Shown here piece after piece: positions 3,887 to 34,112 of a DNA stretch of 37,656 nucleotides. The stretch covers positions 1 through 37,656 of the forward strand of contig CAZZLX010000003.1 in NCBI GenBank assembly GCA_964655235.1. Reading direction: 5' to 3'. Source of the DNA: an uncultured Rhizobium sp. Lineage in GTDB: Bacteria > Pseudomonadota > Alphaproteobacteria > SHVZ01. Below the pieces are notes generated by a model. That model did not search any database. It was not told the DNA's origin and saw only the letters and a program-made list of their open reading frames with translations. Made by a program: the position numbers and the translations under genes. Within the stretch, counting starts at the first letter, position 1; every line of letters begins with the position of its first letter.

Positions 3887-4300
3887 TCATACCGTGAAGA
3901 GCGTGCGGACTACCTGATCGCTGTCGAAGGGCTTCTCGCAGAACGGGACCTGCCTGAACCGTGCGGGAACGGTCCGCTGATCGCAGCCGGTGGCGAAGAC
4001 GAACGGAATCGCGCGGCTGGCGAGCGCGTCGGCGACGGCGTAGCCGATCTCGCCGCGCAGATCGATGTCGAGGATCGCGCCGTCCAGGCGGTTGGTCTCG
4101 ACCATGTCGAGAGCCTTGTCGACGGTCGGTACCGGTCCGATGACCTCGGCGCCGCGGGCGATCAGCGCCTCGGCGACATCGCCGGCGATACAGTACTGGT
4201 CCTCGACCACGAGGACGCGCCGGCCGCGCAGATCCGTCACGCCGAGAGCGCCGCGCATGGGAAATGGAACGACATTGGTGCCGTGCATTGTCATGAGCAC
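3887..4300 (-). CDS. Single-domain response regulator, FATGUY (SdrG/MrrA-like) type
   Basis: VLVVED, AILDIDL, PFVFATGC and EKPF motifs. Start is uncertain (4300, 4294, 4288 or 4258). Confidence 0.85.
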   Translation of the reverse strand: MLMTMHGTNVVPFPMRGALGVTDLRGRRVLVVEDQYCIAGDVAEALIARGAEVIGPVPTVDKALDMVETNRLDGAILDIDLRGEIGYAVADALASRAIPFVFATGCDQRTVPARFRQVPFCEKPFDSDQVVRTLFTV

Positions 4301-4396
4301 CCCCTCTCGACGACGCTAGCAGCACGATACCGCGCTGTCCCTTCGAGAGATGCCCGGTCTCTAAATTCTCACCGGTACCGTGCTTCCGATCTTTTG

Positions 4397-5933: not shown

Positions 5934-7735
5934 GCCGTCTCGACCTCGAATCCCATGCCGGGAGCACCGGCTGGCGGCGGCTCGTCACCTTCGTTCCGGC
6001 GCTGGCGCTGACCGGGCTCGGCGTCTGGATGATGGCGACGGCGCTCGGCGGCAACGGCCTCACCTGGGCCGAGATCGGCCTGCTCGTTCTGTTCGCGATC
6101 ACCTTCGGCTGGATCGCTCTGTCGTTCTGGGCTGCCGTGCTGGGTTTCGTGCTGATGGCGCTGGGCCGCCACCCGGTGACGCTGGCCCGCGTCCCGCCCG
6201 GCGATCCGACCGCGCAATTGACCAGGCGCGTCGCGGTGCTGATGCCGATCTACAACGAGGACACCGACCGGGTCTTCGCCGGCATGCTGGCGACCTATCG
6301 GTCGGTCGAGCGCACGCGCTCGGCGCGGCTCTTCGACTTCTTCGTCATCAGCGACACCACCGACCCCGAGATCGGCAAGGCCGAGGAGGCGGCGCTCGAC
6401 GAGTGCATCGACTTGCTGGGATCGGAGGCGCGCCTCTTCTATCGCCGGCGCCCGCAGACCATCGGCCGCAAGGCCGGCAACATCGCCGACTGGGTGCGCG
6501 CGCACGGGGCCATCTACGAGTCGATGATCGTGCTCGACGCCGACAGCGTCATGACCGGCGAGGCGATTATCACGCTCGCGGCGCTGATGGAGGCGAACCC
6601 GGGAACCGGCATCATCCAGACGCTCACCGTGCCGGCGTCGCGCGAGACGCTGTTCGCCCGCGCGTTGCAGTTCGCGAGCCGCCTCTACGGTCCGGTGCTG
6701 GCGACCGGGCAGAGCTTCTGGCAGCTGGGGCATGCCAACTACTTCGGCCACAACGCCATCATCCGCGTGAAGCCCTTCGCCGAGCACTGCATGCTGCCGA
6801 AGCTGCCGGGTGCACCGCCGCTCGGCGGCGAGATCCTGAGCCACGACTTCGTCGAGGCGGCCTTCATCCGCCGCGCCGGCTGGTACGTCTGGCTGCTGCC
6901 CGAGCTCGCCGGCAGCTTCGAGCAGGTGCCGTCGAACCTGATCGACTACGCCGCGCGCGACCGCCGCTGGGTGCAGGGCAACCTGCAGCATCTTCGTCTC
7001 ATGGGGGCCGCGAGGCACTGGGTCGGCCGGCTGCATCTCGGCATGGGCGTGATGGCCTTCGCCGCCGCGCCGCTGTGGTTCCTGCTGCTGCTGCTGACCA
7101 GCGGCGTGGTCATCCATGAGGCCGTGGTCGGCCATGCCTACTTCCCGGCCGAGCGCGTGCTGTTCCCGATCTGGCCGGACTACCGGCCGGAGATGACCTA
7201 CGCGCTGCTCTACCTCACCGGCGCGGTGCTGCTTGGACCGAAGCTGCTGTCGCTGGTGCTGGCGCTCGCGCACGCGCCGTCGCGCCGCGCGTTCGGTGGC
7301 GGTGCGGCGATGACAGGAAGCGCGCTGGTCGAGCTGGCGTTCTCGGTGCTGGTGGCGCCGGTGCTGATGATGCTTCATACGCGCTTCATCGCGACGATCC
7401 TCTCGGGCTCCAGCGTCGGCTGGGGTCCGCAGCCGCGCACCGATCAGGCGGTCACCTGGGCGACGGCGTTCGAGCGCCACTGGCTGCACACGCTGACCGG
7501 CCTGGTCTGGGCCGGACTCATGTACCGCTTCGCGCCCGACTTCCTGCCCTGGGTGCTGCCGGTGGTGCTGGGCCTGGCGCTGTCGATCCCGGTCAACGTG
7601 ATCTCCAGCCGCGCCAGCGTCGGCCGCCTCGCGCGCCGGGTCGGCGTGTTCCGCACGCCTGAGGAGACGCGGCCGCCGCAGGAGCTCGTCTTCGCCAGCG
7701 CCGTGCCGCGCCGGTCAACTTTCCCCGCCGACTGA
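5930..7735 (+). CDS. opgH: Glucans biosynthesis glucosyltransferase OpgH (MdoH), GT2
   Basis: ATGA overlap with the opgG stop. Motifs MPIYNED, RKAGNIADW, LDADS, GHNAIIR, LSHDFVEAA and RDRRWVQGNLQH, plus multiple TM helices. Confidence 0.95.
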   Translation: MSRLDLESHAGSTGWRRLVTFVPALALTGLGVWMMATALGGNGLTWAEIGLLVLFAITFGWIALSFWAAVLGFVLMALGRHPVTLARVPPGDPTAQLTRRVAVLMPIYNEDTDRVFAGMLATYRSVERTRSARLFDFFVISDTTDPEIGKAEEAALDECIDLLGSEARLFYRRRPQTIGRKAGNIADWVRAHGAIYESMIVLDADSVMTGEAIITLAALMEANPGTGIIQTLTVPASRETLFARALQFASRLYGPVLATGQSFWQLGHANYFGHNAIIRVKPFAEHCMLPKLPGAPPLGGEILSHDFVEAAFIRRAGWYVWLLPELAGSFEQVPSNLIDYAARDRRWVQGNLQHLRLMGAARHWVGRLHLGMGVMAFAAAPLWFLLLLLTSGVVIHEAVVGHAYFPAERVLFPIWPDYRPEMTYALLYLTGAVLLGPKLLSLVLALAHAPSRRAFGGGAAMTGSALVELAFSVLVAPVLMMLHTRFIATILSGSSVGWGPQPRTDQAVTWATAFERHWLHTLTGLVWAGLMYRFAPDFLPWVLPVVLGLALSIPVNVISSRASVGRLARRVGVFRTPEETRPPQELVFASAVPRRSTFPAD

Positions 7736-22835: not shown

Positions 22836-22849
22836 TTGATCTGCGTCAA
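22836..22849 (-). promoter_or_regulatory. FixK/Fnr box for the USP gene
   Basis: TTGAT-CTGC-GTCAA, centred about 60 nt upstream of ATG 22783. Confidence 0.85.
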
Positions 22850-22906: not shown

Positions 22907-22974
22907 GCCCAGCACCGTGCCGGCGCATCATCATGCGCGGCCGCCCGCACTGCTCTGAATCCTGGCTGAACCGC

Positions 22975-25653
22975 ATGTCCATTCGCAATCTAGACGCCCT
23001 CTTCAAGCCGCGATCGGTGGCCGTCATCGGCGCGAGCCCGCGCCCCGGCTCGGTCGGCCTCGTCCTGACCCGGAACCTGCTGGCCGGCGGGTTTTCCGGC
23101 CCGATCCACGCGGTCAATCCAAGGCACGCCGAGGTCGCGGGGCTTCCGGTCTATCGGGACGTCTCGCGGCTTCCCGAGGCGCCGGATCTCGCCGTCATCT
23201 GTACGCCGCCCGCGACCGTGCCGGGACTGGTTGCGGAACTCGCGCGGCGCGGCACCCGGGGCGCGGTCGTCGTCACCGCCGGATTCAAGGAGCTCGGCAG
23301 CGCCGAAGGACGCCGGCTCGAACAGGCGATTCTCGACGCGGCGCGTCCGGGCCTGCTCCGCGTCATCGGCCCCAACTGCGTCGGCGTCATGTCGACCGCG
23401 GTCGGGCTCAACGCGACCTTCGCGCATATCGGCGCGCGCAAGGGCAACGTCGCCTTCGTCACCCAGTCCGGTGCCATGGCCACGACCGTGCTCGACTGGG
23501 CCTCCGACCGCGGCATCGGCTTCTCGTACCTGGCCTCGCTCGGCGACATGGCCGACGTCGACTTCGGCGACATGCTCGACTTCCTCGCCAATGACACGGC
23601 GACGAGCTCGATCCTCCTCTACGTCGAGGCCATCACCAACAGCCGGAAGTTCATGTCGGCGGCCCGCGCCGCCGCCCGCCTGAAACCGCTGATCGTGATC
23701 AAGGCCGGGCGCCACGACGCCGCGGCGCGCGCGGCGGCGTCGCATACCGGCGCGATGGCGGGGGCCGACGGCGTCTACGACACCGCGTTCCGCCGCGCCG
23801 GCATGCTGCGCGTCCAGAGCCTCAGCGAGCTGTTCGACGCCGCCGGCACGCTCGCGACCTCGCTGCCGGTCTCGGGCGACAGGCTGGCGATCCTGACCAA
23901 CGGCGGCGGCGCCGGCGTGCTCGCGACCGACGCGCTGCTCGACCTCGACGGTCGCCTGGCCGAGCTTTCGCCGGCGACGGTCGCCGCGCTGGACAAGGTC
24001 CTGCCGCCGACCTGGCCGCGGGCGAATCCGGTCGACATCATCGGCGACGCGCCGGCGGGTCGTTACGCCGACGCGCTGCGGATCCTCAAGGACGCGCCCG
24101 AGGTCGATGCTACCCTGGTGCTGAACTGCCCGACCGCGATCGGGTCGGGGGTCGACGCGGCCCGCGCCGTCGCGGCTGTGGCCTCAGAAGGCCGTCGCGT
24201 GATCCTGACGAGCTGGCTCGGCAGCACCGCGGCGGTCGATGCGCGACGCGTGTTCGCGTCGGTCGGGATTCCGACCTACGACACGCCCGACGCGGCGATC
24301 AGGGGCTTCATGCATCTGGTCAGGTACCGCCGGAACCAGGCGCAGCTGATGGAAGTCCCGGCCGCGGGGCCGCGCGAGCCCGAGGCGCGGACGGGGGAAG
24401 CCCGGCGGATCGTCGGGGAAGCCGTCGCCGGCGGAAGAGCATGGCTCAACGAGGCCGAGATCAGCCGGCTGTTCGCCTGCTACGACATTCCCGCCGCACG
24501 CTCGCTTCTCGCCGCGGATCCGGACGATGCCGCGCGTTGCGCGTCGATGCTCGGCGGACCTTTCGCGCTCAAGGTCTCGTCGCCCGACATCACGCACAAA
24601 TCCGATGTCGGCGGCGTCGTACTGGATCTCGCGTCCCCGGATGATGTCCGCGCCGCGGCGATCGCGATGCTTCGGCGCGTCGAGGAGGCCGTGCCCAACC
24701 GCCGCGTGACGGGGTTCATCGTCCAGGAGATGGTCCGCCGGCCGCATGCCCATGAGGTGATCCTCGGCATGGCCGTGGACCGCCAGTTCGGGCCGTTCCT
24801 GCTGTTCGGTCATGGCGGTACCGGCGTCGAGGTCATCGCCGACCGGGCGCTGGCGCTGCCGCCGCTCAACATGAGCCTCGCGCACGAGTTGATGGCGCGC
24901 ACCCGGATCCATCGCCTGCTCGTGGGGTATCGCAACCGCCCGGCCGCCGATCTCGATGCGGTCGCCGGCACCCTGGTTCGTCTGTCGCAGCTGGTCTGCG
25001 ATCTCGACGAGGTCGTCGAGATCGACCTCAACCCGCTGCTCGTGGACGAGACCGGGGCGATCGTGGTCGACGCCCGCATGCGCGTCGCGCCGATGCCGGC
25101 AGGGGCCCTGCGCGGGTCACGCCTGTCGATCGTGCCTTATCCAAAGGAGTTCGAGCAGACCGTCGAGATCCAGGGCATGGGACCGGTGCTGATGCGCCCG
25201 GTGCGGCCCGAAGACGCGCCGGCCATCCTCCGCTTCGTCGAAGGGCTTGCGCCGGAGGATGCGCGCCTTCGCTTCTTCGGCGCGATCCGCACGCTCTCCA
25301 AGGAGATGCTCGTGCGACTGACCCAGATCGACTACGACCGCCAGATGGCGTTCGTGCTCGAAGCGGCGGGCGAGATCCTCGGCGTGTCGCGCCTCGCGGC
25401 CGATCCCGACAACCGCCAGGCGGAGTTCGCGGTGACGGTCGGCAGCAAGCTCAAGTCGCGTGGCATCGGAACCCTCCTGATGCGCCGCCTGATCGAGCAC
25501 GCGCAGCATCGGCGCATCGGGGCGCTCGTCGGCGATATCCTCGCCGAAAACGCAGCGATGCTCTCGCTGGCGCGCGATCTCGGATTCAAGCTGAGCCCGC
25601 CCGACGTGCGGAGCGGGACGGTCCACGCCGTGCTGCCGCTGGGCACGTCCTGA
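22975..25653 (+). CDS. pat: Protein lysine acetyltransferase Pat type (NDP-forming acyl-CoA synthetase-like domain plus C-terminal GNAT)
   Basis: MSIRNLDALFKPRSVAVIGAS, GPNCVG, QSGA, HKSDVGGV, RLRFF and TQIDYDR motifs, with a GNAT RGIG motif. Confidence 0.9.
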   Translation: MSIRNLDALFKPRSVAVIGASPRPGSVGLVLTRNLLAGGFSGPIHAVNPRHAEVAGLPVYRDVSRLPEAPDLAVICTPPATVPGLVAELARRGTRGAVVVTAGFKELGSAEGRRLEQAILDAARPGLLRVIGPNCVGVMSTAVGLNATFAHIGARKGNVAFVTQSGAMATTVLDWASDRGIGFSYLASLGDMADVDFGDMLDFLANDTATSSILLYVEAITNSRKFMSAARAAARLKPLIVIKAGRHDAAARAAASHTGAMAGADGVYDTAFRRAGMLRVQSLSELFDAAGTLATSLPVSGDRLAILTNGGGAGVLATDALLDLDGRLAELSPATVAALDKVLPPTWPRANPVDIIGDAPAGRYADALRILKDAPEVDATLVLNCPTAIGSGVDAARAVAAVASEGRRVILTSWLGSTAAVDARRVFASVGIPTYDTPDAAIRGFMHLVRYRRNQAQLMEVPAAGPREPEARTGEARRIVGEAVAGGRAWLNEAEISRLFACYDIPAARSLLAADPDDAARCASMLGGPFALKVSSPDITHKSDVGGVVLDLASPDDVRAAAIAMLRRVEEAVPNRRVTGFIVQEMVRRPHAHEVILGMAVDRQFGPFLLFGHGGTGVEVIADRALALPPLNMSLAHELMARTRIHRLLVGYRNRPAADLDAVAGTLVRLSQLVCDLDEVVEIDLNPLLVDETGAIVVDARMRVAPMPAGALRGSRLSIVPYPKEFEQTVEIQGMGPVLMRPVRPEDAPAILRFVEGLAPEDARLRFFGAIRTLSKEMLVRLTQIDYDRQMAFVLEAAGEILGVSRLAADPDNRQAEFAVTVGSKLKSRGIGTLLMRRLIEHAQHRRIGALVGDILAENAAMLSLARDLGFKLSPPDVRSGTVHAVLPLGTS

Positions 25654-26215: not shown

Positions 26216-26956
26216 TCAGGCGACGCCGCTGCCGATCGTCACCAGCTTGTTGCGATCGCGGACGACGATCTGGCTCGCGGTCGGGATGTCGATGACGTGG
26301 CTCTCGCGAAGCTGCGTGAGGATGCGGCTGACGGTCTCGATGGTGAGGCCGAGATAGTCGGCAATGTCCGCGCGACACATCGGCAGCTTGATCGTGTTGG
26401 CGTCGACCGTCTTCGGCGAGCGCGTGCGCTCGGTCATGGCCAGGAGGAAGGAGGCGATGCGTTCGACGGCGCTCTTGCGGCAGAGGGTCAGCAGGCGCTC
26501 CTGCGCTGCCGACAGCTGGCCGCACATCAGGTTGAAGAAGCGGCGGCCGGCGCGGGGATCTTCCTCGAGAAGCTCCTTCAGCTGCTGCTTCGGGTACCGG
26601 ACGAAGCTCGTGTCGGACAGAACTTCGAGCGAGTGGCTGTAGGTGCCGTCTTCCGCGAGGCCGAAGAAGTCGCCGGGCAGCAGGAAGTCGATGACGGAGC
26701 GGCGGCCGTCGGGGAGCAGGCGGACCATCCGGAGCGCGCCGCTGACCACCTTGTAGACGTGCTCGGCAGAATCTCCCTGCTCGACGATCGTCTTGCCGCG
26801 CGGCATCACGTGGAGCGTTCCGAGCCGGTCGAGCGAGGCGGCGCCCGCATCGGCACCGGCCGTCGGGGCGAGCCGGGGAAGCTGGGTCGACGTGGCCTTC
26901 CGCGGGGGGATCTGGGTGCGGATGGCCGGGAACGCCTGGGTAGCAACTGCGGTCAT
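26216..26956 (-). CDS. fixK: FixK-type Crp/Fnr transcriptional regulator
   Basis: GGAGGG RBS. Recognition helix LPMCRADIADYLGLTIETVSR (ExxSR), no N-terminal FNR Cys cluster, and located downstream of fixLJ. Confidence 0.88.
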   Translation of the reverse strand: MTAVATQAFPAIRTQIPPRKATSTQLPRLAPTAGADAGAASLDRLGTLHVMPRGKTIVEQGDSAEHVYKVVSGALRMVRLLPDGRRSVIDFLLPGDFFGLAEDGTYSHSLEVLSDTSFVRYPKQQLKELLEEDPRAGRRFFNLMCGQLSAAQERLLTLCRKSAVERIASFLLAMTERTRSPKTVDANTIKLPMCRADIADYLGLTIETVSRILTQLRESHVIDIPTASQIVVRDRNKLVTIGSGVA

Positions 26957-27035
26957 TTTTCCCTCCTGCAGCGACATCGTCGCGTTGGAGGAAAGCTACC
27001 GGCGTCACGCCTTCCGAGAAATTTCGGGATTGTAC

Positions 27036-27556: not shown

Positions 27557-28171
27557 CTAGCGCGCGATCACGCCGGCCGCCAGCGCCATGCGGACCAGAT
27601 GGGACAGGCTGTCCGCGTCCATCTTCTTCATCAGGTTCGCGCGGTGGATCTCGACCGTGCGGGGGCTGATCTTGAGCTCGAAGGCAATGATCTTGTTGGG
27701 GTGGCCAATCACAAGTTGCTCGAGCACCTCGCGCTCGCGCGGCGTGAGTGCCGCGATCTTGGCCGCGTTGCCGGCGTCGCGGACCATGTCTTCGCCCGAG
27801 CTGGCCCTGGTCTGCTCGAGGGCCCGCGACACCGCCGCGAGGATGACCTCGTTGCCGTAGGGCTTTTCGACGAAGTCGGCCGCGCCCGCCTTCATGGCGC
27901 GGACCGCCAGCGGTACGTCCCCGTGCCCGGTCACCATGATGACGGGAAGGCTCGCCGCATCGCCCTTCAGCCGCTCGATCAGCTGCAGGCCGTCCATGCC
28001 CGGCATCCTGAGGTCGACCACCGCGCAGGCCCGGGCCCCCGGACGATAGGCGCCGAGAAACGCCTCGGCGGAGTTGTAGGTCGAGACGCTGAAGCCTCGG
28101 GATTCGAGCAGGGCCTGCAGGGATTCCCTAACTGCTTCGTCGTCGTCGACGACGTAGATCGTTCCGGCCAC
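27557..28171 (-). CDS. fixJ: Response regulator FixJ
   Basis: Receiver (VVDDD, DLRMPGMDG, TGHGDVPLAVRAMKAGA) plus LuxR HTH (LTPREREVL..NKIIA..SPRTVEIHRANLMKK). Confidence 0.93.
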   Translation of the reverse strand: MAGTIYVVDDDEAVRESLQALLESRGFSVSTYNSAEAFLGAYRPGARACAVVDLRMPGMDGLQLIERLKGDAASLPVIMVTGHGDVPLAVRAMKAGAADFVEKPYGNEVILAAVSRALEQTRASSGEDMVRDAGNAAKIAALTPREREVLEQLVIGHPNKIIAFELKISPRTVEIHRANLMKKMDADSLSHLVRMALAAGVIAR

Positions 28172-28184
28172 GCGGCGGCTCCGC

Positions 28185-29669
28185 TCAACCGGCCGGCAGC
28201 AGGAAGCGGAATACCGTCCCGCCGCCCGGATTCGGTTCCGCCCAGATGCGTCCGCCGTGCTCGCTGACGATCGACTGGCTGATCGAGAGGCCGATCCCCA
28301 TGCCGGTCTTCTTTGTCGTAGTGAAGGGCTTGAACAGGTTCTCGACGATCTCGGGCGAAAGGCCCGGTCCGGTATCGGCGATCGCCACCTCCTGCCGGTC
28401 GTCGGCGCCGCTGGTCCGGATCGCGAGCTCCCGCCGCTCGACGCCGCTCATCGCCTCGATGGCATTGCGCACCAGGTTCACGACCACCTGCTGGATCTGG
28501 ATCTTGTCCATGCTGATAGGCGTCAGGTCAGGCGCAAGGTCGTAGCTGATCGAGACACCGTCGAGTTTCGCGCCGACCGTTGCGAGGGCGGCTGCCTCTT
28601 CCACGACCATGGAGAGCGATTCCGGGGCACGCTCGACCTCCGTCTTCTCGACGTAGCTTCGCAGGCGCCGGATGATCTGTCCCGCTCTCTCCGCCTGAGC
28701 CGCGATCTTTCCCAGGAAGTCGACGACGCGGTCCACGGGCGGGTTCGAGGTCGTCATCATGTGACGGGTCGCGTCGCTGTAGTTGGCCACCGCGGTCAGC
28801 GGCTGGTTGAGCTCGTGCGCCAGCGAGGAGGCGAGCTGCCCCATCGCGCTCAAGCGGGCGATGTGCTGCATCTCGCCCGTCAGCTCGCGAACCCGGCCTT
28901 CCGCCTGACGCAGGTCGGTCGTGTCGCGTCCGATCGTCGAGATCCCGACGACCTCGCCCTTGTCGGTGCGGATCGGCGAGAGGGTCAGCGACATGTCGAG
29001 GACGCGGCCGTCCTTGGTCACGCGCTGTGTATCGTATTGAGCGATGACTTCGCCCCGGCACACGCGCCGGATGAGGTCGTCGACCTCGCCCTTCCGTTCG
29101 GCCGGGGAAAGATCGGAGATCGGCCGGCCGATCATTTCTGCAGCGGTGTAGCCGTAGGTCAGCTCGGCGCCCCGGTTCCAGGCCGTGACGATGCCGCGCA
29201 GGTCCTTGCCGATGATGACGTCGTGCGAGGACTCGACGATGGCGGCCAGCCGGTCGCGATCCTGCTCGAATTCCTTCTGCCGCGTGAGATCGTGGATGAT
29301 TCCGACGAAGATGCTCTGGCCGCCCTGATGCCCTTCTCCGACCGAGAGGTACATCGGAAAGACCGAGCCGTCCTTCCGCCGCCCCGTGACCTCCCGCCCC
29401 ATGCCGATGATCCGGGGCTGCCCGGTGGAACGATAGGCCGCGATGTAGCGGTCGTGCTCCTCGTGATAGGGCGACGGCATCAGCATGCGGATGTTCTGGC
29501 CGATCACCTCCGCCGCCGGATAGCCGAACAGGCGCGCACACGCCGGGTTGTAGACCTGCACGATCCCTTCGGCGTCGATGACGATGATGCCATCGACGGC
29601 GGTCGTCAGCAGCGCGTCGAGCTGAGCACTTTCAACGTCTCGGCGATCGTCGGACCCGATCCTGATCAT
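28185..29669 (-). CDS. fixL: Heme-PAS oxygen-sensor histidine kinase FixL (cytoplasmic, two PAS domains)
   Basis: Heme-PAS signature LMPSPYHEEHDRYI..IIGMGREVTGRRKDGSVFPMYLSVGE. H box LAHELNQPL, then NLVRNA, DTGPG and GMGIGL. No TM segments. Confidence 0.92.
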   Translation of the reverse strand: MIRIGSDDRRDVESAQLDALLTTAVDGIIVIDAEGIVQVYNPACARLFGYPAAEVIGQNIRMLMPSPYHEEHDRYIAAYRSTGQPRIIGMGREVTGRRKDGSVFPMYLSVGEGHQGGQSIFVGIIHDLTRQKEFEQDRDRLAAIVESSHDVIIGKDLRGIVTAWNRGAELTYGYTAAEMIGRPISDLSPAERKGEVDDLIRRVCRGEVIAQYDTQRVTKDGRVLDMSLTLSPIRTDKGEVVGISTIGRDTTDLRQAEGRVRELTGEMQHIARLSAMGQLASSLAHELNQPLTAVANYSDATRHMMTTSNPPVDRVVDFLGKIAAQAERAGQIIRRLRSYVEKTEVERAPESLSMVVEEAAALATVGAKLDGVSISYDLAPDLTPISMDKIQIQQVVVNLVRNAIEAMSGVERRELAIRTSGADDRQEVAIADTGPGLSPEIVENLFKPFTTTKKTGMGIGLSISQSIVSEHGGRIWAEPNPGGGTVFRFLLPAG

Positions 29670-29779
29670 GGAACGATCCTAACGTTGTAGGTCCCAGGCC
29701 TTGGTCGACCCAGCATGTTATCGCGAGTTTGAATTATTTTTAACCGGCGCCCGAAACGGAAGCGGCGAGGCGCTGCGGG

Positions 29780-29793
29780 TTGAGGTGGATCAA
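29780..29793 (+). promoter_or_regulatory. FixK/Fnr box between divergent fixL and the L,D-transpeptidase gene
   Basis: TTGAG-GTGG-ATCAA, centred about 58 nt upstream of ATG 29845. Confidence 0.75.
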
Positions 29794-29844
29794 GTTCCCT
29801 CGTCGCTCCGGCGAGCATCATCGCTCCGGAGTCGATCCAAGTCC

Positions 29845-30789
29845 ATGACCCGCGCATTTATCAATCGAAGAGACGGTATCCGACGTCTTTGCCGAATCGC
29901 GGCTGGCGGGGCGATCCTGAGCGTTTTGGGGGTGCAGCGCGTCCATGCCCAGATGCGCAACGATGTGGTCGGCCGCTTCGCGGTCTGGGCCGCGAGGGCC
30001 GAGGACACGCTGCTCGACCTTGCGATGCAGCATGGTCTGGGCTTCGTCGAGATCGTCGCGGCCAATCCCGGCGTGGATCCCTGGCTTCCCGGCACCGGGA
30101 CCGTCATCTCTCTGCCCTGCGCCCATCTGCTGCCGGCAGCGCCTCGGCGCGGGATCGTCATCAATCTCGCCGACCAGCGCCTCTATTTCTTTCCGACCGC
30201 GGGCGCCGTCCAGACCTATCCGATCGGCATCGCGGCGGACGGGGTCGCGATCGACGTCGGCCTCGGCCGCGTGATCCGCAAGCGCAAGGACCCGGTCTGG
30301 GTACCGCCGGCATCGGTCAGGGCCGAAGCGCCGGAGCTGCCGCTGTCGGTGCCTCCGGGCCCGGACAATCCGCTCGGGGCCTTCGCGCTCGATCTCAGCT
30401 GGACGAGCACGGCGATCCACGGGACCAACAACCTTTACGGCGTCGGGCGGCGTGTCAGCCACGGCTGCTTCCGGCTGTACCCGGACGACATCGCGGCGCT
30501 GTTCCCGCAGGTCGCGATCGGGACGGAGGTGCACATCTTCGATCAGCCGGTCAAGTTGGGCTGGTCGGAGGAGGGACTTCTGCTTGAGGTGCATCCGACA
30601 CTGGCGCAGGCCGACGAGATCGAGGCTCACGGCCGAGCCGAGCCCGTGGACCTCCCGGATCTGGAAATGCTGGTCATGGAAGCCGCCGGCGCGATGGCGG
30701 ACGATCTCGACTGGAGAACTCTCAGGCGCGTGGCCCGCGAGCACCTCGGCATTCCGTTCCCGATCCTGAGATCGGGCCGCGACCGATAG
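29845..30789 (+). CDS. L,D-transpeptidase, ErfK/YbiS/YcfS/YnhG family
   Basis: Signal peptide with RR pairs ending VHA-Q. LysM-like EIVAANPGVDPWLP, catalytic IHGT..SHGCFRL, and C-terminal QPVKLGW..LEVH. Confidence 0.92.
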   Translation: MTRAFINRRDGIRRLCRIAAGGAILSVLGVQRVHAQMRNDVVGRFAVWAARAEDTLLDLAMQHGLGFVEIVAANPGVDPWLPGTGTVISLPCAHLLPAAPRRGIVINLADQRLYFFPTAGAVQTYPIGIAADGVAIDVGLGRVIRKRKDPVWVPPASVRAEAPELPLSVPPGPDNPLGAFALDLSWTSTAIHGTNNLYGVGRRVSHGCFRLYPDDIAALFPQVAIGTEVHIFDQPVKLGWSEEGLLLEVHPTLAQADEIEAHGRAEPVDLPDLEMLVMEAAGAMADDLDWRTLRRVAREHLGIPFPILRSGRDR

Positions 30790-30792
30790 CCT

Positions 30793-31347
30793 CTAGACGG
30801 CTGGCCAGAGCACGACCGGCTTGTGCCGTGTCGTCGGCGGCGAGACGGACGCGGGCTTGCCGACGATGACCGGCGCCACCGGGACCTGATCAGGCAGCAG
30901 GCCCAGAAGCGACCGCGTCTGCGGCAGTTCGAGCCACGGTCTGGCGGTGCCGATCCAGCAGGTCCCCCAGCCGCGGCTGTAGGCGGCCAGCATCAGGCCG
31001 TGCGCGGCCAAGCAGCAATCCTCCGCGGCCTGGCGCGACGGCGGCCTGGCGCAGACGATGATGAGGCAGGGCGCACCGTAGAAGATGTTGTGCGAAGGGT
31101 CCTGGAGCACCGTCCGATGAGACGCATCCGTCGTCGGCAGGGACAGAAGGGCGCGCTTCGCGAGGGCGGACATCCTCTCCAGCCGCTCTTTTCCCTCCAC
31201 GACCACGAACGACCAGGGCTGCAGGTTCATCGCGCTCGGCGATGCGGCGGCCGCCTCGATAAGGCTCAGGATCTCCGCGCGGGAGACCGGCTCGTCGGTA
31301 TAGGCCCTGACGGACCGGCGCCCCTTGATTGCCTGCATCAGCTCCAT
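30793..31347 (-). CDS. Nitroreductase family protein
   Basis: AIKGRRSVRAY, SPSAMNLQPWSF and GTCWIG. An alternative GTG at 31425 overlaps the lipoprotein stop. Confidence 0.9.
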   Translation of the reverse strand: MELMQAIKGRRSVRAYTDEPVSRAEILSLIEAAAASPSAMNLQPWSFVVVEGKERLERMSALAKRALLSLPTTDASHRTVLQDPSHNIFYGAPCLIIVCARPPSRQAAEDCCLAAHGLMLAAYSRGWGTCWIGTARPWLELPQTRSLLGLLPDQVPVAPVIVGKPASVSPPTTRHKPVVLWPAV

Positions 31348-31421
31348 GCCTTCCGACTCCGAGGTCGAGGCTGGGATTTCAGGCTGACGCCGAAAGGAAT
31401 CCCGGCGGCAGCCCGTGTCGG

Positions 31422-31748
31422 TCACGGCGTCGTCTTGCGCTGGGTGCGCCGGAACATGCGATCAGCGCGCTCGGCGGCCGCCTTGGCGTTGTCGGCGGCA
31501 CTCGAGGCTGCGCTCGACGCAGAACGGGCGGCGTCGGCGCTCTGGCCGGCCGTGGCCGAGGCTCGCGCGGCGGCCTCGCTTGCGCTCTTGGCGGCATCGG
31601 CGGCGCGGTCGGCCGCGGCCTTCGCCTCGATCGAGGTCTGGCGGACGCTTTCCAGCAGGGCGCGGTCGTCCTGGCTGAGCGTGGTGCAGGCGCCGAGCCC
31701 GATGACCGGCAATGCCAGAGCGAACACCCTCACGAATGAGCGAAGCAT
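31422..31748 (-). CDS. OprI/Lpp-like alanine-zipper lipoprotein
   Basis: GGAGG RBS, lipobox LGA-C21, Ala-rich heptads, and C-terminal AERADRMFRRTQRK resembling the OprI end. Confidence 0.8.
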   Translation of the reverse strand: MLRSFVRVFALALPVIGLGACTTLSQDDRALLESVRQTSIEAKAAADRAADAAKSASEAAARASATAGQSADAARSASSAASSAADNAKAAAERADRMFRRTQRKTTP

Positions 31749-31805
31749 GCGGAACCTCCGAAACAGATAGTGCGGTCAGCGTATGGCCGGCGGCGATCCG
31801 CTTCG

Positions 31806-31819
31806 TTGATGTAGGTCAA
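31806..31819 (-). promoter_or_regulatory. FixK/Fnr box for lipoprotein-nitroreductase
   Basis: TTGAT-GTAG-GTCAA, centred about 65 nt upstream of ATG 31748. Confidence 0.85.
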
Positions 31820-31859
31820 CAGCGGATCGGGCCACGTGCACGGAAGCGTGAGCGCCGCG

Positions 31860-32336
31860 CTATCGCGCCGCGAGGCCACGCTCGATGCGGTGGGCCAGCG
31901 TATCGAGATGCTTGCCGAGGTCGCCGTCGGGAACCGGCGTCAGGTCCTTCGCAAGCTCGCCGACGACCCGCTTGCTGGTCTGGGTGTCGAGATGGCTCCG
32001 GATCTCGCCGAGAACCCGCGCCGGCGCCACCAGCACCAGCTCGTCGAACTCCGACGCACGCGAGGCTTCGTTGATGTCGGCGGCGGTCTTGTGCGCGAAG
32101 GCGAGCTTGGCCTGCCGGTGCGGGTCGTGCTTCGCTTCGGCCGCGTGCCGCGCCGACGACGCGCTCTCGCCGACGCGCCCGGCACGATCCGACATGATCT
32201 GCGAGGTCTTGAGCCTGGCCAGCCGCGACTCCGAACGGCTCACCTGATGATAGCCGCCGGTCTCGGCGTCGCGCCGGACGATGCGCGCGTGGGCGCCGTC
32301 GGCGATGAGGTACCAGATCTCGACATGCTTGGACAT
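31860..32336 (-). CDS. Host attachment family protein (bacterial aeRF1-like, baeRF12-type)
   Basis: GGAGG RBS. WYLIADGAHARI, SDRAGR, LVLVAPARVLGEIR and ELAKDLT motifs. Confidence 0.85.
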   Translation of the reverse strand: MSKHVEIWYLIADGAHARIVRRDAETGGYHQVSRSESRLARLKTSQIMSDRAGRVGESASSARHAAEAKHDPHRQAKLAFAHKTAADINEASRASEFDELVLVAPARVLGEIRSHLDTQTSKRVVGELAKDLTPVPDGDLGKHLDTLAHRIERGLAAR

Positions 32337-32399
32337 TTCTTCCTCCGGCTGAGGCATGACGCAGGGGAGAACAGCTAGCGCAGGTCGCGCGACAAGGGA

Positions 32400-32413
32400 T
32401 TGACGTGGATCAA
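32400..32413. promoter_or_regulatory. FixK/Fnr box shared by divergent genes
   Basis: GGGA-TTGAC-GTGG-ATCAA-TCCC extended palindrome, about 70 nt from ATG 32336 and 78 nt from ATG 32484. Confidence 0.85.
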
Positions 32414-32483
32414 TCCCCGGCATCGGCCCAGACGGCAGAAAGAAGAACGAACAGGCTCAGACACGCGCACCATCGGGAAGATC

Positions 32484-34112
32484 ATGTCCACGACTCCTAC
32501 GCATTCCATCACGCTGCAGTTCTGCGGCGGCGCCCATACCGTCACCGGCTCGTGCCTGCTGTTCAGGACACAGCGGGCCAAGGTGCTGGTCGATTGCGGG
32601 ATGTTCCAGGGATCGAAGACGCTGAAGTCGCTGAACTACGGCGCCTTCGCGTTCGATCCGGCCGAGATCGACGCCGTGCTCCTGACCCATGCGCATATCG
32701 ACCACAGCGGCCTTGTGCCCAAGCTCGTCACCAGCGACTTCCGGGGTCGCATCCTGGCGACCCGCGGCACCATCGATCTCTGCTCCTATCTCCTGCCGGA
32801 TGCCGGCTACATCCAGGAGAGTGAGGTCGCCGCGCTGAACCAGAGGAACGCGGCCCGCGGCCGCGCGCCGGTTTCGCCGATCTACACGAAGGCCGATGCG
32901 ATCGCCTCGCTGAATGCGTTCAGGCCGGTCGACTACGAGACATGGTTCACGGCCGCGCCGGGCGTGCGCGCACGCTACTGGAATGCCGGACATCTTCTCG
33001 GATCGGCGTCGATCGAGCTCGAGTTCGAGCCGGCAGCCGGAGGACGGCCGCTGACGGTGCTCGCCTCCGGCGACATCGGCCCGAACGGCAAGCTGTTCCA
33101 GCCCGATCCCGACGCGCCCTCCGGAATCGACTACGTCGTCTCGGAGTCGACCTACGGCGACACCGACCGCCCGGACGTGCGTCCGAAGGAGCGCCGCAAG
33201 CGGCTGGCGGACGAGCTCCGTGCCGCGCGGTCTGCCGGCGGCGCGCTCCTGATCCCGGCGTTCGCCGTGGAGCGGACGCAGGAGCTGCTTGTCGAGCTGC
33301 TCGACCTGATGGACAAGCACGAAGTGCCGGCCGCGCCGGTGTTCCTGGACTCGCCGCTCGCGATCCGGGCAACCGAGGTGTTCCGGCAGCACGCATCGAG
33401 TCTTGAAGGCGATTTCGATATCGACCGGTTGCTGGACTCCCCGCACCTGCACGCGACGGAGACGGTGGAGGAGAGCAAGCGGATCGCGCGCTTCTCCGGA
33501 TTCCACGTCATCGTCGCCGGTAGCGGCATGTGCGAGGCGGGACGCATCCGCCATCATCTCAAGCATTGGCTCTGGCGGCGGGATGCGACCGTGCTCCTCA
33601 CCGGATTCCAGGCGCGCGGAACCCTGGGACGTTTCCTCGCCGACGGTGCGTCGGCGGTCCGCATCCAGGGCGAGGAGGTCAAGGTCGCCGCGCGGATCCG
33701 TCAGCTCGACGACTACTCGGGCCACGCCGACGGCCCCGAGCTGCTCGACTGGATCACCCGCCGCGGGCCGATCTGGCGCGGCATCTTCCTCGGCCACGGC
33801 GAGCGCAGCGCCCTCGATGCGCTGCAGAAGCGCGTCGCCGACCGGCTCGGCGAAGATCCCGTCTGCCTCGTGCCGGAGCTCGACCAGCGCTTCGAGCTCG
33901 GCGGCGCCTCGCCGCGGCTGCTCGAAGGCGTGCAGCGCCGGCTTCAGCCGGAAGCGGTCGAGAACCTCGACTGGCACAACGAGATGTCGCGGCTCATCCT
34001 CGACATCAACCGGCGGCTCGAGGCCGCGTCGAGCGACCGCGAGCGCGACCAGCTGGTGCGAACCCTGCGCCAGGCGCTGGGAGGCGCTGATCCCGCCGCG
34101 CCGCGGGGCTGA
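32484..34112 (+). CDS. MBL-fold beta-CASP metallo-hydrolase (Ysh1/TTHA0252-like ribonuclease)
   Basis: VTGSC, DCGMFQG, THAHIDHSG, AGHLLGS, SGD, ESTYG, PAFAVERTQ, SGHAD and HGE motifs. Confidence 0.92.
   Translation: MSTTPTHSITLQFCGGAHTVTGSCLLFRTQRAKVLVDCGMFQGSKTLKSLNYGAFAFDPAEIDAVLLTHAHIDHSGLVPKLVTSDFRGRILATRGTIDLCSYLLPDAGYIQESEVAALNQRNAARGRAPVSPIYTKADAIASLNAFRPVDYETWFTAAPGVRARYWNAGHLLGSASIELEFEPAAGGRPLTVLASGDIGPNGKLFQPDPDAPSGIDYVVSESTYGDTDRPDVRPKERRKRLADELRAARSAGGALLIPAFAVERTQELLVELLDLMDKHEVPAAPVFLDSPLAIRATEVFRQHASSLEGDFDIDRLLDSPHLHATETVEESKRIARFSGFHVIVAGSGMCEAGRIRHHLKHWLWRRDATVLLTGFQARGTLGRFLADGASAVRIQGEEVKVAARIRQLDDYSGHADGPELLDWITRRGPIWRGIFLGHGERSALDALQKRVADRLGEDPVCLVPELDQRFELGGASPRLLEGVQRRLQPEAVENLDWHNEMSRLILDINRRLEAASSDRERDQLVRTLRQALGGADPAAPRG

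Follow-up and report, generated by a model that had tools for sequence, protein, structure and literature searches.

The DNA analyzed here, a stretch of 37,656 nucleotides (nt) that we refer to as the window, comes from an alphaproteobacterium (an uncultured Rhizobium sp., contig CAZZLX010000003.1) whose metagenome-assembled genome (MAG; G000) is 79.5% complete. It carries a gene for a small alanine-rich lipoprotein and a gene for an L,D-transpeptidase (Ldt) that point toward each other, each with a FixK/FNR-type box upstream. The question that this locus raises is whether the two proteins are substrate and enzyme and, if so, when they would be made. Based on sequence profiles, gene linkage across the class, and a structural model, we think it probable, while well short of certain, that the pair constitutes a FixK-controlled covalent tether linking outer membrane to peptidoglycan, composed of a trimer of the OprI type and the Ldt dedicated to it. 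The features of the pair are as follows.

31422..31748, minus strand: OprI-family alanine-zipper lipoprotein precursor, 108 amino acids (open reading frame [ORF], profile, and alignment evidence)
30793..31347, minus strand: nitroreductase-family gene (PF00881, E 1.3e-34)
29845..30789, plus strand: ErfK/YbiS/YcfS/YnhG-type Ldt, 314 amino acids (YkuD, PF03734)
29780..29793: FixK/FNR-type box TTGAGGTGGATCAA, its center 58.5 nt upstream of the ATG of the Ldt gene and 117 nt away from the start of the divergent fixL gene
31806..31819: FixK/FNR-type box TTGATGTAGGTCAA, centered ~64 nt upstream of the lipoprotein ATG

The original prediction, made from the DNA sequence, had described a 108-amino-acid lipoprotein with an LGA-C lipobox, no Asp at position +2, and a TTP extension at its end, convergent with an Ldt and parted from it only by a nitroreductase. 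This description is confirmed in ORF 31422..31748(-) and its neighbors: the lipoprotein and nitroreductase genes, both on the minus strand, converge on the Ldt gene on the plus strand, and the nitroreductase and Ldt stop codons are 3 nt apart. The nitroreductase gene starts 74 nt 3' of the lipoprotein gene on the same strand and is probably cotranscribed with it; its likely start is the ATG at 31347, as used in a relative, with a GTG at 31425 as the alternative. A nitroreductase intervenes between lipoprotein and Ldt in the window's genus only. The lipoprotein ATG is preceded, at a distance of 6 nt, by a GGAGG Shine-Dalgarno sequence.

A lipoprotein of the OprI kind by its family

The lipoprotein precursor consists of a signal peptide, a lipobox with Thr at position +2 (L-G-A-C21-T-T), an alanine-rich body, and a C terminus that reads ...AERADRMFRRTQRK followed by TTP. 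By the +2 sorting rule known from Escherichia coli, position +2 holds no residue that would keep the lipoprotein in the inner membrane. Among 5.8 billion proteins searched, there were 15 homologues, the exact window sequence being absent from that collection, and profile searches of genomes returned many more. From these we assembled an alignment of 28 alphaproteobacterial family members (A2). The alanine-zipper family PF11839 is matched by 26 of the 28 at an E value of ≤0.01 (best, 2.5e-10), while the E. coli LPP model PF04728 touches only 1 of the 28. Among solved structures, the A2 profile matches 9tz4_A best (E 9e-4). This chain of 59 residues is labeled "Major outer membrane lipoprotein," and we take it to be OprI; the two align end to end, beginning where the rod starts and finishing at the terminal RK. 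Membership in the Lpp family (PF04728) was considered for the lipoprotein and dropped: when the family profile was compared with E. coli Lpp by hhalign, the signal peptide alone aligned, and no further homology was detected.

The window protein by itself gives a weaker signal, which weighs against our reading. It scores below the cutoffs of both PF11839 (20.3 versus 23.1 bits) and NF040598 (25.5 versus 43 bits), and an alanine-rich composition inflates weak profile matches, so that scores for zipper families are to be read with that caveat. Both of these alignments finish the profile at K105. The lipoprotein is thus assigned by profile to the OprI/alanine-zipper kind at the level of its family and not by its own score, and the OprI profile match that had been proposed as a check holds for the family and fails for the window protein alone.

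This assignment bears on what has been said about Lpp in this class. Two surveys, Witwinowski et al. (10.1101/2021.05.31.446380) and Winkle et al. (PMC8263019), restrict Lpp-like proteins to some Gammaproteobacteria, in each case on a search with PF04728 only, and Alphaproteobacteria are described as tethering the outer membrane by β-barrel proteins (PMC12729407). In surveys limited to PF04728, Lpp figures as an invention that some Gammaproteobacteria made recently. The original prediction had likewise stated that studied Alphaproteobacteria lack Lpp, a statement that goes back to surveys of this kind.

Within the A2 alignment, C21, A88, and K105 are invariant across all 28 sequences. The alanine pattern at heptad positions a and d runs without a break through residues 32 to 98; the a positions from 46 to 95 and the d positions from 42 to 91 are Ala, S70 being the exception, and 19 to 28 of the 28 sequences have Ala in the corresponding columns where aligned. 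When three copies of the lipoprotein were modeled together, the score was 0.54, compared with 0.00 for the best control, with pLDDT values of at least 76 and at least 85% of contacts agreeing between runs. Of 30 proteins solved as same-chain pairs, 20 reach a mark of 0.54, as does 1 of 23 single-chain structures; this score is calibrated for two copies, and the model may remember solved Lpp trimers. The contacts are in register (e.g., 46-46 and 49-49) and point to a parallel bundle, and the model, one of the checks that the original prediction had proposed, supports a homotrimer as a prediction. Compared with E. coli Lpp, which is trimeric, the window protein is similar in being a small coiled-coil lipoprotein with an Arg-Lys end, predicted to reach the outer membrane, and it differs in having an alanine zipper where Lpp has a leucine zipper.

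The neighboring L,D-transpeptidase and its linkage to the lipoprotein

The Ldt matches YkuD (PF03734) over residues 102 to 231 with 70.8 bits against a cutoff of 23.4 (E 2.4e-19), and it is of the YcfS/ErfK type first assigned to it. Its layout is an N-terminal signal-like region, a LysM-like segment, the YkuD domain, and a C-terminal domain. The catalytic motifs are H192-G-T and S205-H-G-C208-F-R210; residues H192, S205, G207, C208, and R210 are invariant across 19 partner Ldts, and S-x-G-C-h-R is present in all 27 partner Ldts examined. This is the transpeptidase form of the motif, S-x-G-C-h-A being the form found in the DpaA amidase (PMC10434034).

The lipoprotein and the Ldt were followed with profiles in two sets of genomes, 60 close-to-distant relatives and a sample of 400 genomes from across the Alphaproteobacteria. 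The lipoprotein was found in 6 of the 60 relatives and in 33 of the 400 class genomes. We inspected 31 loci (±1.5 kb), 30 from the 400-genome sample and 1 from the relatives, the window included; 5 further matches were left out. In 28 of the 31 loci, a strong tblastn match to the window Ldt lies within 1.5 kb of the lipoprotein, always 3' of the lipoprotein gene and mostly convergent with it, sometimes in tandem. In the three unlinked loci, the Ldt is 4.5 kb away (G163) or on another contig (G020 and G325). Conserved linkage had been named in the original prediction as something to look for, and it is found here across many families.

The two genes also co-occur at the level of whole genomes. 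The Ldt profile matches 61 of the 400 genomes at an E value of ≤1e-40, and 49 of these matches, as read from the match table, are near full-length. A full-length Ldt is present in 30 of the 33 lipoprotein-positive genomes and in 19 of the 367 others; because related genomes are not independent, we attach no test statistic to this difference. Two lipoprotein-positive genomes without the Ldt (G190 and G206) have the weakest lipoprotein matches, which lie in long open frames. In G228 (C6:46421-47141), a partial Ldt that covers profile positions 189 to 309 and contains an internal TGA sits beside the lipoprotein, and this may be a decaying copy of the cassette. In the other direction, 7 of the 19 Ldt-only genomes have an adjoining divergent Ala-rich lipoprotein that ends in Lys (G027, G063, G096, G188, G210, G299, and G394), and 3 more have weaker candidates (G350, G289, and G385). 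Within the window's genus, both genes are found in G004 and G008, and neither was found in the 8 other genomes, which are 74 to 97% complete.

A survey that started from the Ldt gave a similar picture. Of the best 80 among 593 confirmed Ldt loci in named public genomes, 51 have a lipoprotein match no more than 3 kb away, in convergent orientation at 39 loci and in tandem at 12; 49 of the 51 matches score above 30 bits. Several of the loci without a match end at contig edges. Cultured carriers include Stella vacuolata ATCC 43931 (L092, whose lipoprotein ends in RK), Virgifigura deserti, and Limibaculum sediminis, and some carriers are MAGs labeled Myxococcota, delta proteobacterium, or Chromatiales. 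From the gene arrangement in these genomes, we conclude that the lipoprotein and the Ldt are a conserved module.

The pair can be compared with OprI and LdtPae2 of Pseudomonas aeruginosa (PMC10434034). The lipoproteins share PF11839 at the family level, the lipobox, an alanine-zipper body, and, by alignment to 9tz4_A, the ER-A-x-R-M-x4-RK ending, and the enzymes share the ErfK/YbiS/YcfS/YnhG lineage and the S-x-G-C-h-R motif. Unlike OprI, the window lipoprotein has TTP after the Lys and scores below the family cutoffs, and the two window genes are neighbors and belong to an alphaproteobacterium.

A different explanation is that the Ldt is mainly a FixK-induced 3-3 cross-linker that remodels the wall at low oxygen, that the adjacency of the genes is inherited synteny, and that the lipoprotein is not attached by this enzyme. 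In E. coli K-12, lpp(+) and ldtE(-) are convergent neighbors 63 bp apart (NC_000913.3 1757421-1758725), the identical layout of lipoprotein and Ldt. LdtA/B/C anchor E. coli Lpp, whereas LdtE, according to work by Magnet and colleagues from 2008, reportedly makes 3-3 cross-links instead of anchoring Lpp, so that being neighbors is in itself no proof that two such proteins are enzyme and substrate. Over 273 residues, the window Ldt shares 37% identity with E. coli LdtE, and its best NCBIfam models are those of LdtE, PRK10190, and PRK10260 (E 7e-48 to 5.5e-45). The LdtE model comes first by a negligible margin, and all three scores are far below the equivalog cutoffs (163.5, 163.2, and 153.7 versus 480, 517, and 583 bits), so that these scores do not separate the paralogues. 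Nor can the function of an Ldt be read from phylogeny, since anchoring and cross-linking Ldts are inseparable by lineage (PMC10434034). Finally, in 9 of the 49 genomes with a full-length Ldt no partner lipoprotein was found nearby (in one of them, the locus is truncated at the edge of a contig), and this type of Ldt can therefore have another job. All of these points count against attachment by the Ldt.

On the other side, the lipoprotein is almost never found without this type of Ldt (30 of 33), and the two clear exceptions are the weak matches described above. The two genes have been gained or lost jointly within the genus, and the motif (E/D)(R/K)xxR(M/I/V)(F/Y)-x4-(R)K with its Lys is kept at loci where a short linker poor in Ala replaces the coiled coil (see below). 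No further periplasmic transpeptidase-type YkuD protein was found in the MAG (79.5% complete). Cross-linking and anchoring are also compatible and could coexist in one enzyme. These observations weaken the cross-linker explanation; we consider it unlikely that the Ldt is mainly a cross-linker and favor a dedicated lipoprotein-attaching Ldt. The E. coli arrangement suggests that the lipoprotein/Ldt gene pair predates the split of the LPP and OprI families.

The sole other YkuD match in the MAG (L045, contig C309 3492-4022[-]) is a protein of ~176 amino acids that lacks a signal peptide, carries the motif T-A-G-C-L-A, and matches no NCBIfam model at an E value of ≤0.001. An L,D-carboxypeptidase-like enzyme of the cytoplasm is one possible identity, and the label "ElsL/DpaA-like" is given to it only for its size, its missing signal peptide, and its motif. 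In one other family (L039 in G078), a second YkuD-type ORF, 6217-6906(-), with the motif T-D-G-C-I-S lies between the lipoprotein and the Ldt. In NCBIfam, it matches the DpaA/YafK amidase model alone (E 8.9e-7, with a score well short of the cutoff), and it could be a detaching enzyme inside the same cassette; four FixK-type boxes are also present at this locus. When the window genome was searched with this ORF, no match was found, which at 79.5% completeness is no evidence of absence.

The C-terminal motif and the tail beyond the lysine

Lys105 is invariant in both lipoprotein alignments (28 of 28 in A2), R104-K105 is conserved, and the motif ERADRMFRRTQR-K105 directly precedes the TTP tail. 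In most of the family, this Lys is the last residue (25 of the 31 loci from the class and 48 of the 51 that are Ldt-anchored). A tail after the Lys is a minority trait, found at 6 of 31 class loci, 3 of which are in the window's genus, and at 3 of 51 Ldt-anchored loci, in keeping with the original description of the TTP extension as unusual. Tails are present in 9 of the 15 closest database homologues. They are composed of 1 to 5 small residues (TTP, TTP, and PAR in the genus, TAPPQ in G078, GVGS in G163, N in G279, ISQ in L061, and R in L066; PSR, PAS, and GAGT are further examples) and are free to differ in both sequence and length, whereas (E/D)(R/K)A(D/E)R(M/I/V)(F/Y) and the R104-K105 that follows it stay constant.

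At some Ldts, a short non-Ala linker replaces the coiled coil altogether, and the ...ERVFxxQxK ending stays (L145, L150, L122, and L125). These zipper-less short lipoproteins, which include L145 at 4130-4357(-) in G289 and L150 at 4071-4343(-) in G385, are convergent to the same type of Ldt; they have Pro/Ala-poor linkers and ~45 mature residues and end in ...(A/P)E(R/K)VF-x4-K. Because the tails vary while the motif is fixed, and because the ending persists even where the coiled coil has been replaced, we read the C-terminal motif with its Lys as what selection maintains and, plausibly, as the site that the Ldt recognizes. The same comparison hints at a broader class of Ldt substrates that is defined by the C-terminal motif alone.

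The position of this Lys weighs against attachment. In the window lipoprotein, the Arg-Lys pair is not at the very C terminus, since TTP follows K105, and the anchoring of Lpp and OprI shown so far uses a terminal Lys (PMC10434034; 10.1101/2025.11.13.688167). The tail (TTP or PAR) might mask the Lys in this genus, giving either a free, nonattached form of the lipoprotein or a damping subunit like Salmonella LppB. Changes at the C terminus of LppB lower cross-linking efficiency, and LppB lowers the cross-linking of Lpp (10.1101/2025.11.13.688167); the minority status of the tail fits this explanation as well. Set against this, only one copy of the lipoprotein was found in the window genome, so that there is no major partner to damp, and both Arg104 and Lys105 are conserved in the tailed relatives, whose tails are free to vary. 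A dedicated Ldt is retained beside the genes with tails, and Coxiella LimB, attached via Lys21 by an Ldt described as unknown, is a precedent for the use of an internal Lys (PMC12729407). We regard a masked Lys as improbable and favor attachment at K105 in spite of the tail, which might be either kept or trimmed. The chemical acceptor for attachment would be the side-chain amine of the Lys.

In the mechanism that we propose, the lipoprotein would be exported, lipidated at Cys21, and sorted to the outer membrane, where three copies would assemble in parallel into an alanine-zipper rod about ten heptads long. The neighboring Ldt, a predicted periplasmic enzyme, would form an acyl-enzyme with the peptidoglycan stem at meso-diaminopimelic acid (meso-DAP) and would act on the lipoprotein as LdtPae2 acts on OprI and LdtA/B/C act on Lpp; the covalent bond would run from the ε-amine of the Lys to meso-DAP. 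We infer the covalent attachment, the choice of enzyme, and the sorting to the outer membrane from the comparisons given above, and the activation by FixK and its direction from those given below.

Such a tether would share with the β-barrel proteins of Brucella and Agrobacterium and with Coxiella LimB the Ldt-dependent joining of the outer membrane to peptidoglycan without Lpp and, with LimB in particular, attachment through a nonterminal Lys (PMC12729407). It would differ in being an OprI-type rod; the β-barrel proteins are attached by an N-terminal Gly or Ala, and LimB is described as Coxiella specific (PMC12729407). If attachment is true, a third type of tether is added for Alphaproteobacteria, and the C-terminal motif plus Lys becomes a sequence rule for finding Ldt substrates. 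The tail after the Lys, for its part, is a natural test of whether an Ldt needs a free C terminus.

FixK-type boxes and the surrounding genes

FixL-, FixJ-, and FixK-like genes adjoin the pair, as read from family searches (FixL and FixJ) and by the best NCBIfam match (FixK).

28185..29669, minus strand: FixL-like PAS-PAS histidine kinase
27557..28171, minus strand: FixJ-like response regulator (receiver plus GerE/LuxR helix-turn-helix)
26216..26977, minus strand: FixK-like CRP/FNR-family regulator, without an N-terminal Cys cluster

Exact matches to TTGA-N6-TCAA occur 9 times in the window, compared with 0.08 expected, and none of 100 shuffled sequences contained more than 1. The boxes at 31806 and 29780, which the original prediction had assigned to the lipoprotein and the Ldt, are two of these nine. 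The three pair-carrying species of the genus have kept both of them, in line with one of the checks that the original prediction had proposed. In G008, both boxes are at corresponding places. In G004, the gene directly before the lipoprotein is hsp20-like (L009, 7334-7810[+]) and separates it from the FixK box, which lies ~64 nt upstream of this hsp20-like gene; the Ldt box of G004 is 61.5 nt from the ATG. The arrangement before the lipoprotein suggests that box, hsp20, lipoprotein, and nitroreductase are one unit. A universal-stress-protein-like gene with a box of its own adjoins fixL in the same genome; this label and the hsp20 label were read from translations.

Whether these boxes mean induction by FixK is a separate matter from whether the tether is real. 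The boxes could be bound by another regulator of the CRP/FNR family or could be repressive, and the box at 29780 could serve fixL, with which the Ldt shares a divergent intergenic region; low-oxygen induction would then be a mistaken reading even for a real tether. The regulator encoded in the window matches the FixK model NF050806 with an E value of 4.4e-51 and 173 bits, below the equivalog cutoff of 300, and FixK control of the pair is a prediction. In G004, however, fixL is 2.4 kb away and the upstream neighbor of the Ldt is a transporter, and since the box is kept there, we assign the box at 29780 to the Ldt and not to fixL. In a three-species alignment of the region upstream of the Ldt, the box is the sole conserved block. 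The spacing between boxes and gene starts fits class II activation, for which the expected position is -41.5, and the nine boxes cluster around fixLJ-fixK. We therefore give this explanation little credence and retain FixK as the probable activator: with a box at a class-II-like distance on both transcription units and fixLJ-fixK nearby, the tether would be made at low oxygen.

Low-oxygen control is not general in the family. Outside the genus, a box is present within 250 nt upstream in only 6 of 48 distinct lipoprotein loci. These upstream regions contain 7 boxes in 12 kb, compared with 16 in the remaining 274 kb, and boxes also occur upstream in G078, G163, G361, and G306. As judged from these loci, FNR/FixK-type control of the lipoprotein recurs, in a minority of lineages only. 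A scan of 29500-32600 found no sigma-70-like -10/-35 promoters and no intrinsic terminators, a negative that would count against our reading but is uninformative in a high-GC alphaproteobacterium. FixK boxes on both genes distinguish the window pair from P. aeruginosa oprI, whose transcript falls ~18-fold in anoxic biofilm (PMC4731081), so that induction at low oxygen would be opposite to what is seen in the sole studied relative.

Taken further, the data allow a more general and more tentative proposal, one that we would not bet on as it stands. An OprI-type lipoprotein and its own Ldt may be an old, patchily inherited two-gene cassette that acts as a covalent staple, of which E. coli lpp-ldtE would be a relic. 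In the window's genus, this staple would be deployed only at low oxygen and welded through a nonterminal Lys, with the Ldt reading (E/D)RxDRMF-x4-RK and not a free C terminus. The cassette is present in about a tenth of the sampled alphaproteobacterial genomes and in MAGs labeled Myxococcota, Bdellovibrionales, and similar, and an OprI-type lipoprotein is locked to a dedicated Ldt in ~8 to 12% of the 400-genome sample. If attachment is true, envelope mechanics in this genus are tied to the oxygen-sensing FixLJ-FixK cascade. In the literature searched, which does not cover subscription journals, no paper made such a link, none described a pair of OprI-type lipoprotein and Ldt from Alphaproteobacteria, and none reported FixK control of an Ldt or lipoprotein gene. 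The parts are of known kinds; what is new is the host class, the tight two-gene cassette, and the wiring to an oxygen sensor together with the nonterminal Lys.

The window DNA occurs in freshwater and estuary metagenomes. Six further boxes are found in the last 15 kb of the window, at 22836, 22893, 26179, 35869, 36532, and 37488, and this end of the window looks like a FixK regulon island. Two boxes stand in tandem upstream of a gene (22933-25653) for a 906-amino-acid fusion of an ADP-forming acyl-CoA synthetase with a GNAT domain. A short way upstream of the lipoprotein gene is a Host_attach/baeRF-family-12 gene (PF10116, E 8.5e-36) at 31860-32423(-). It is divergent from a β-CASP/RMMBL metallo-hydrolase gene, 32400-34112(+), with the FixK-type box TTGACGTGGATCAA (32400-32413) between them, and both this layout and the box are kept in G008.

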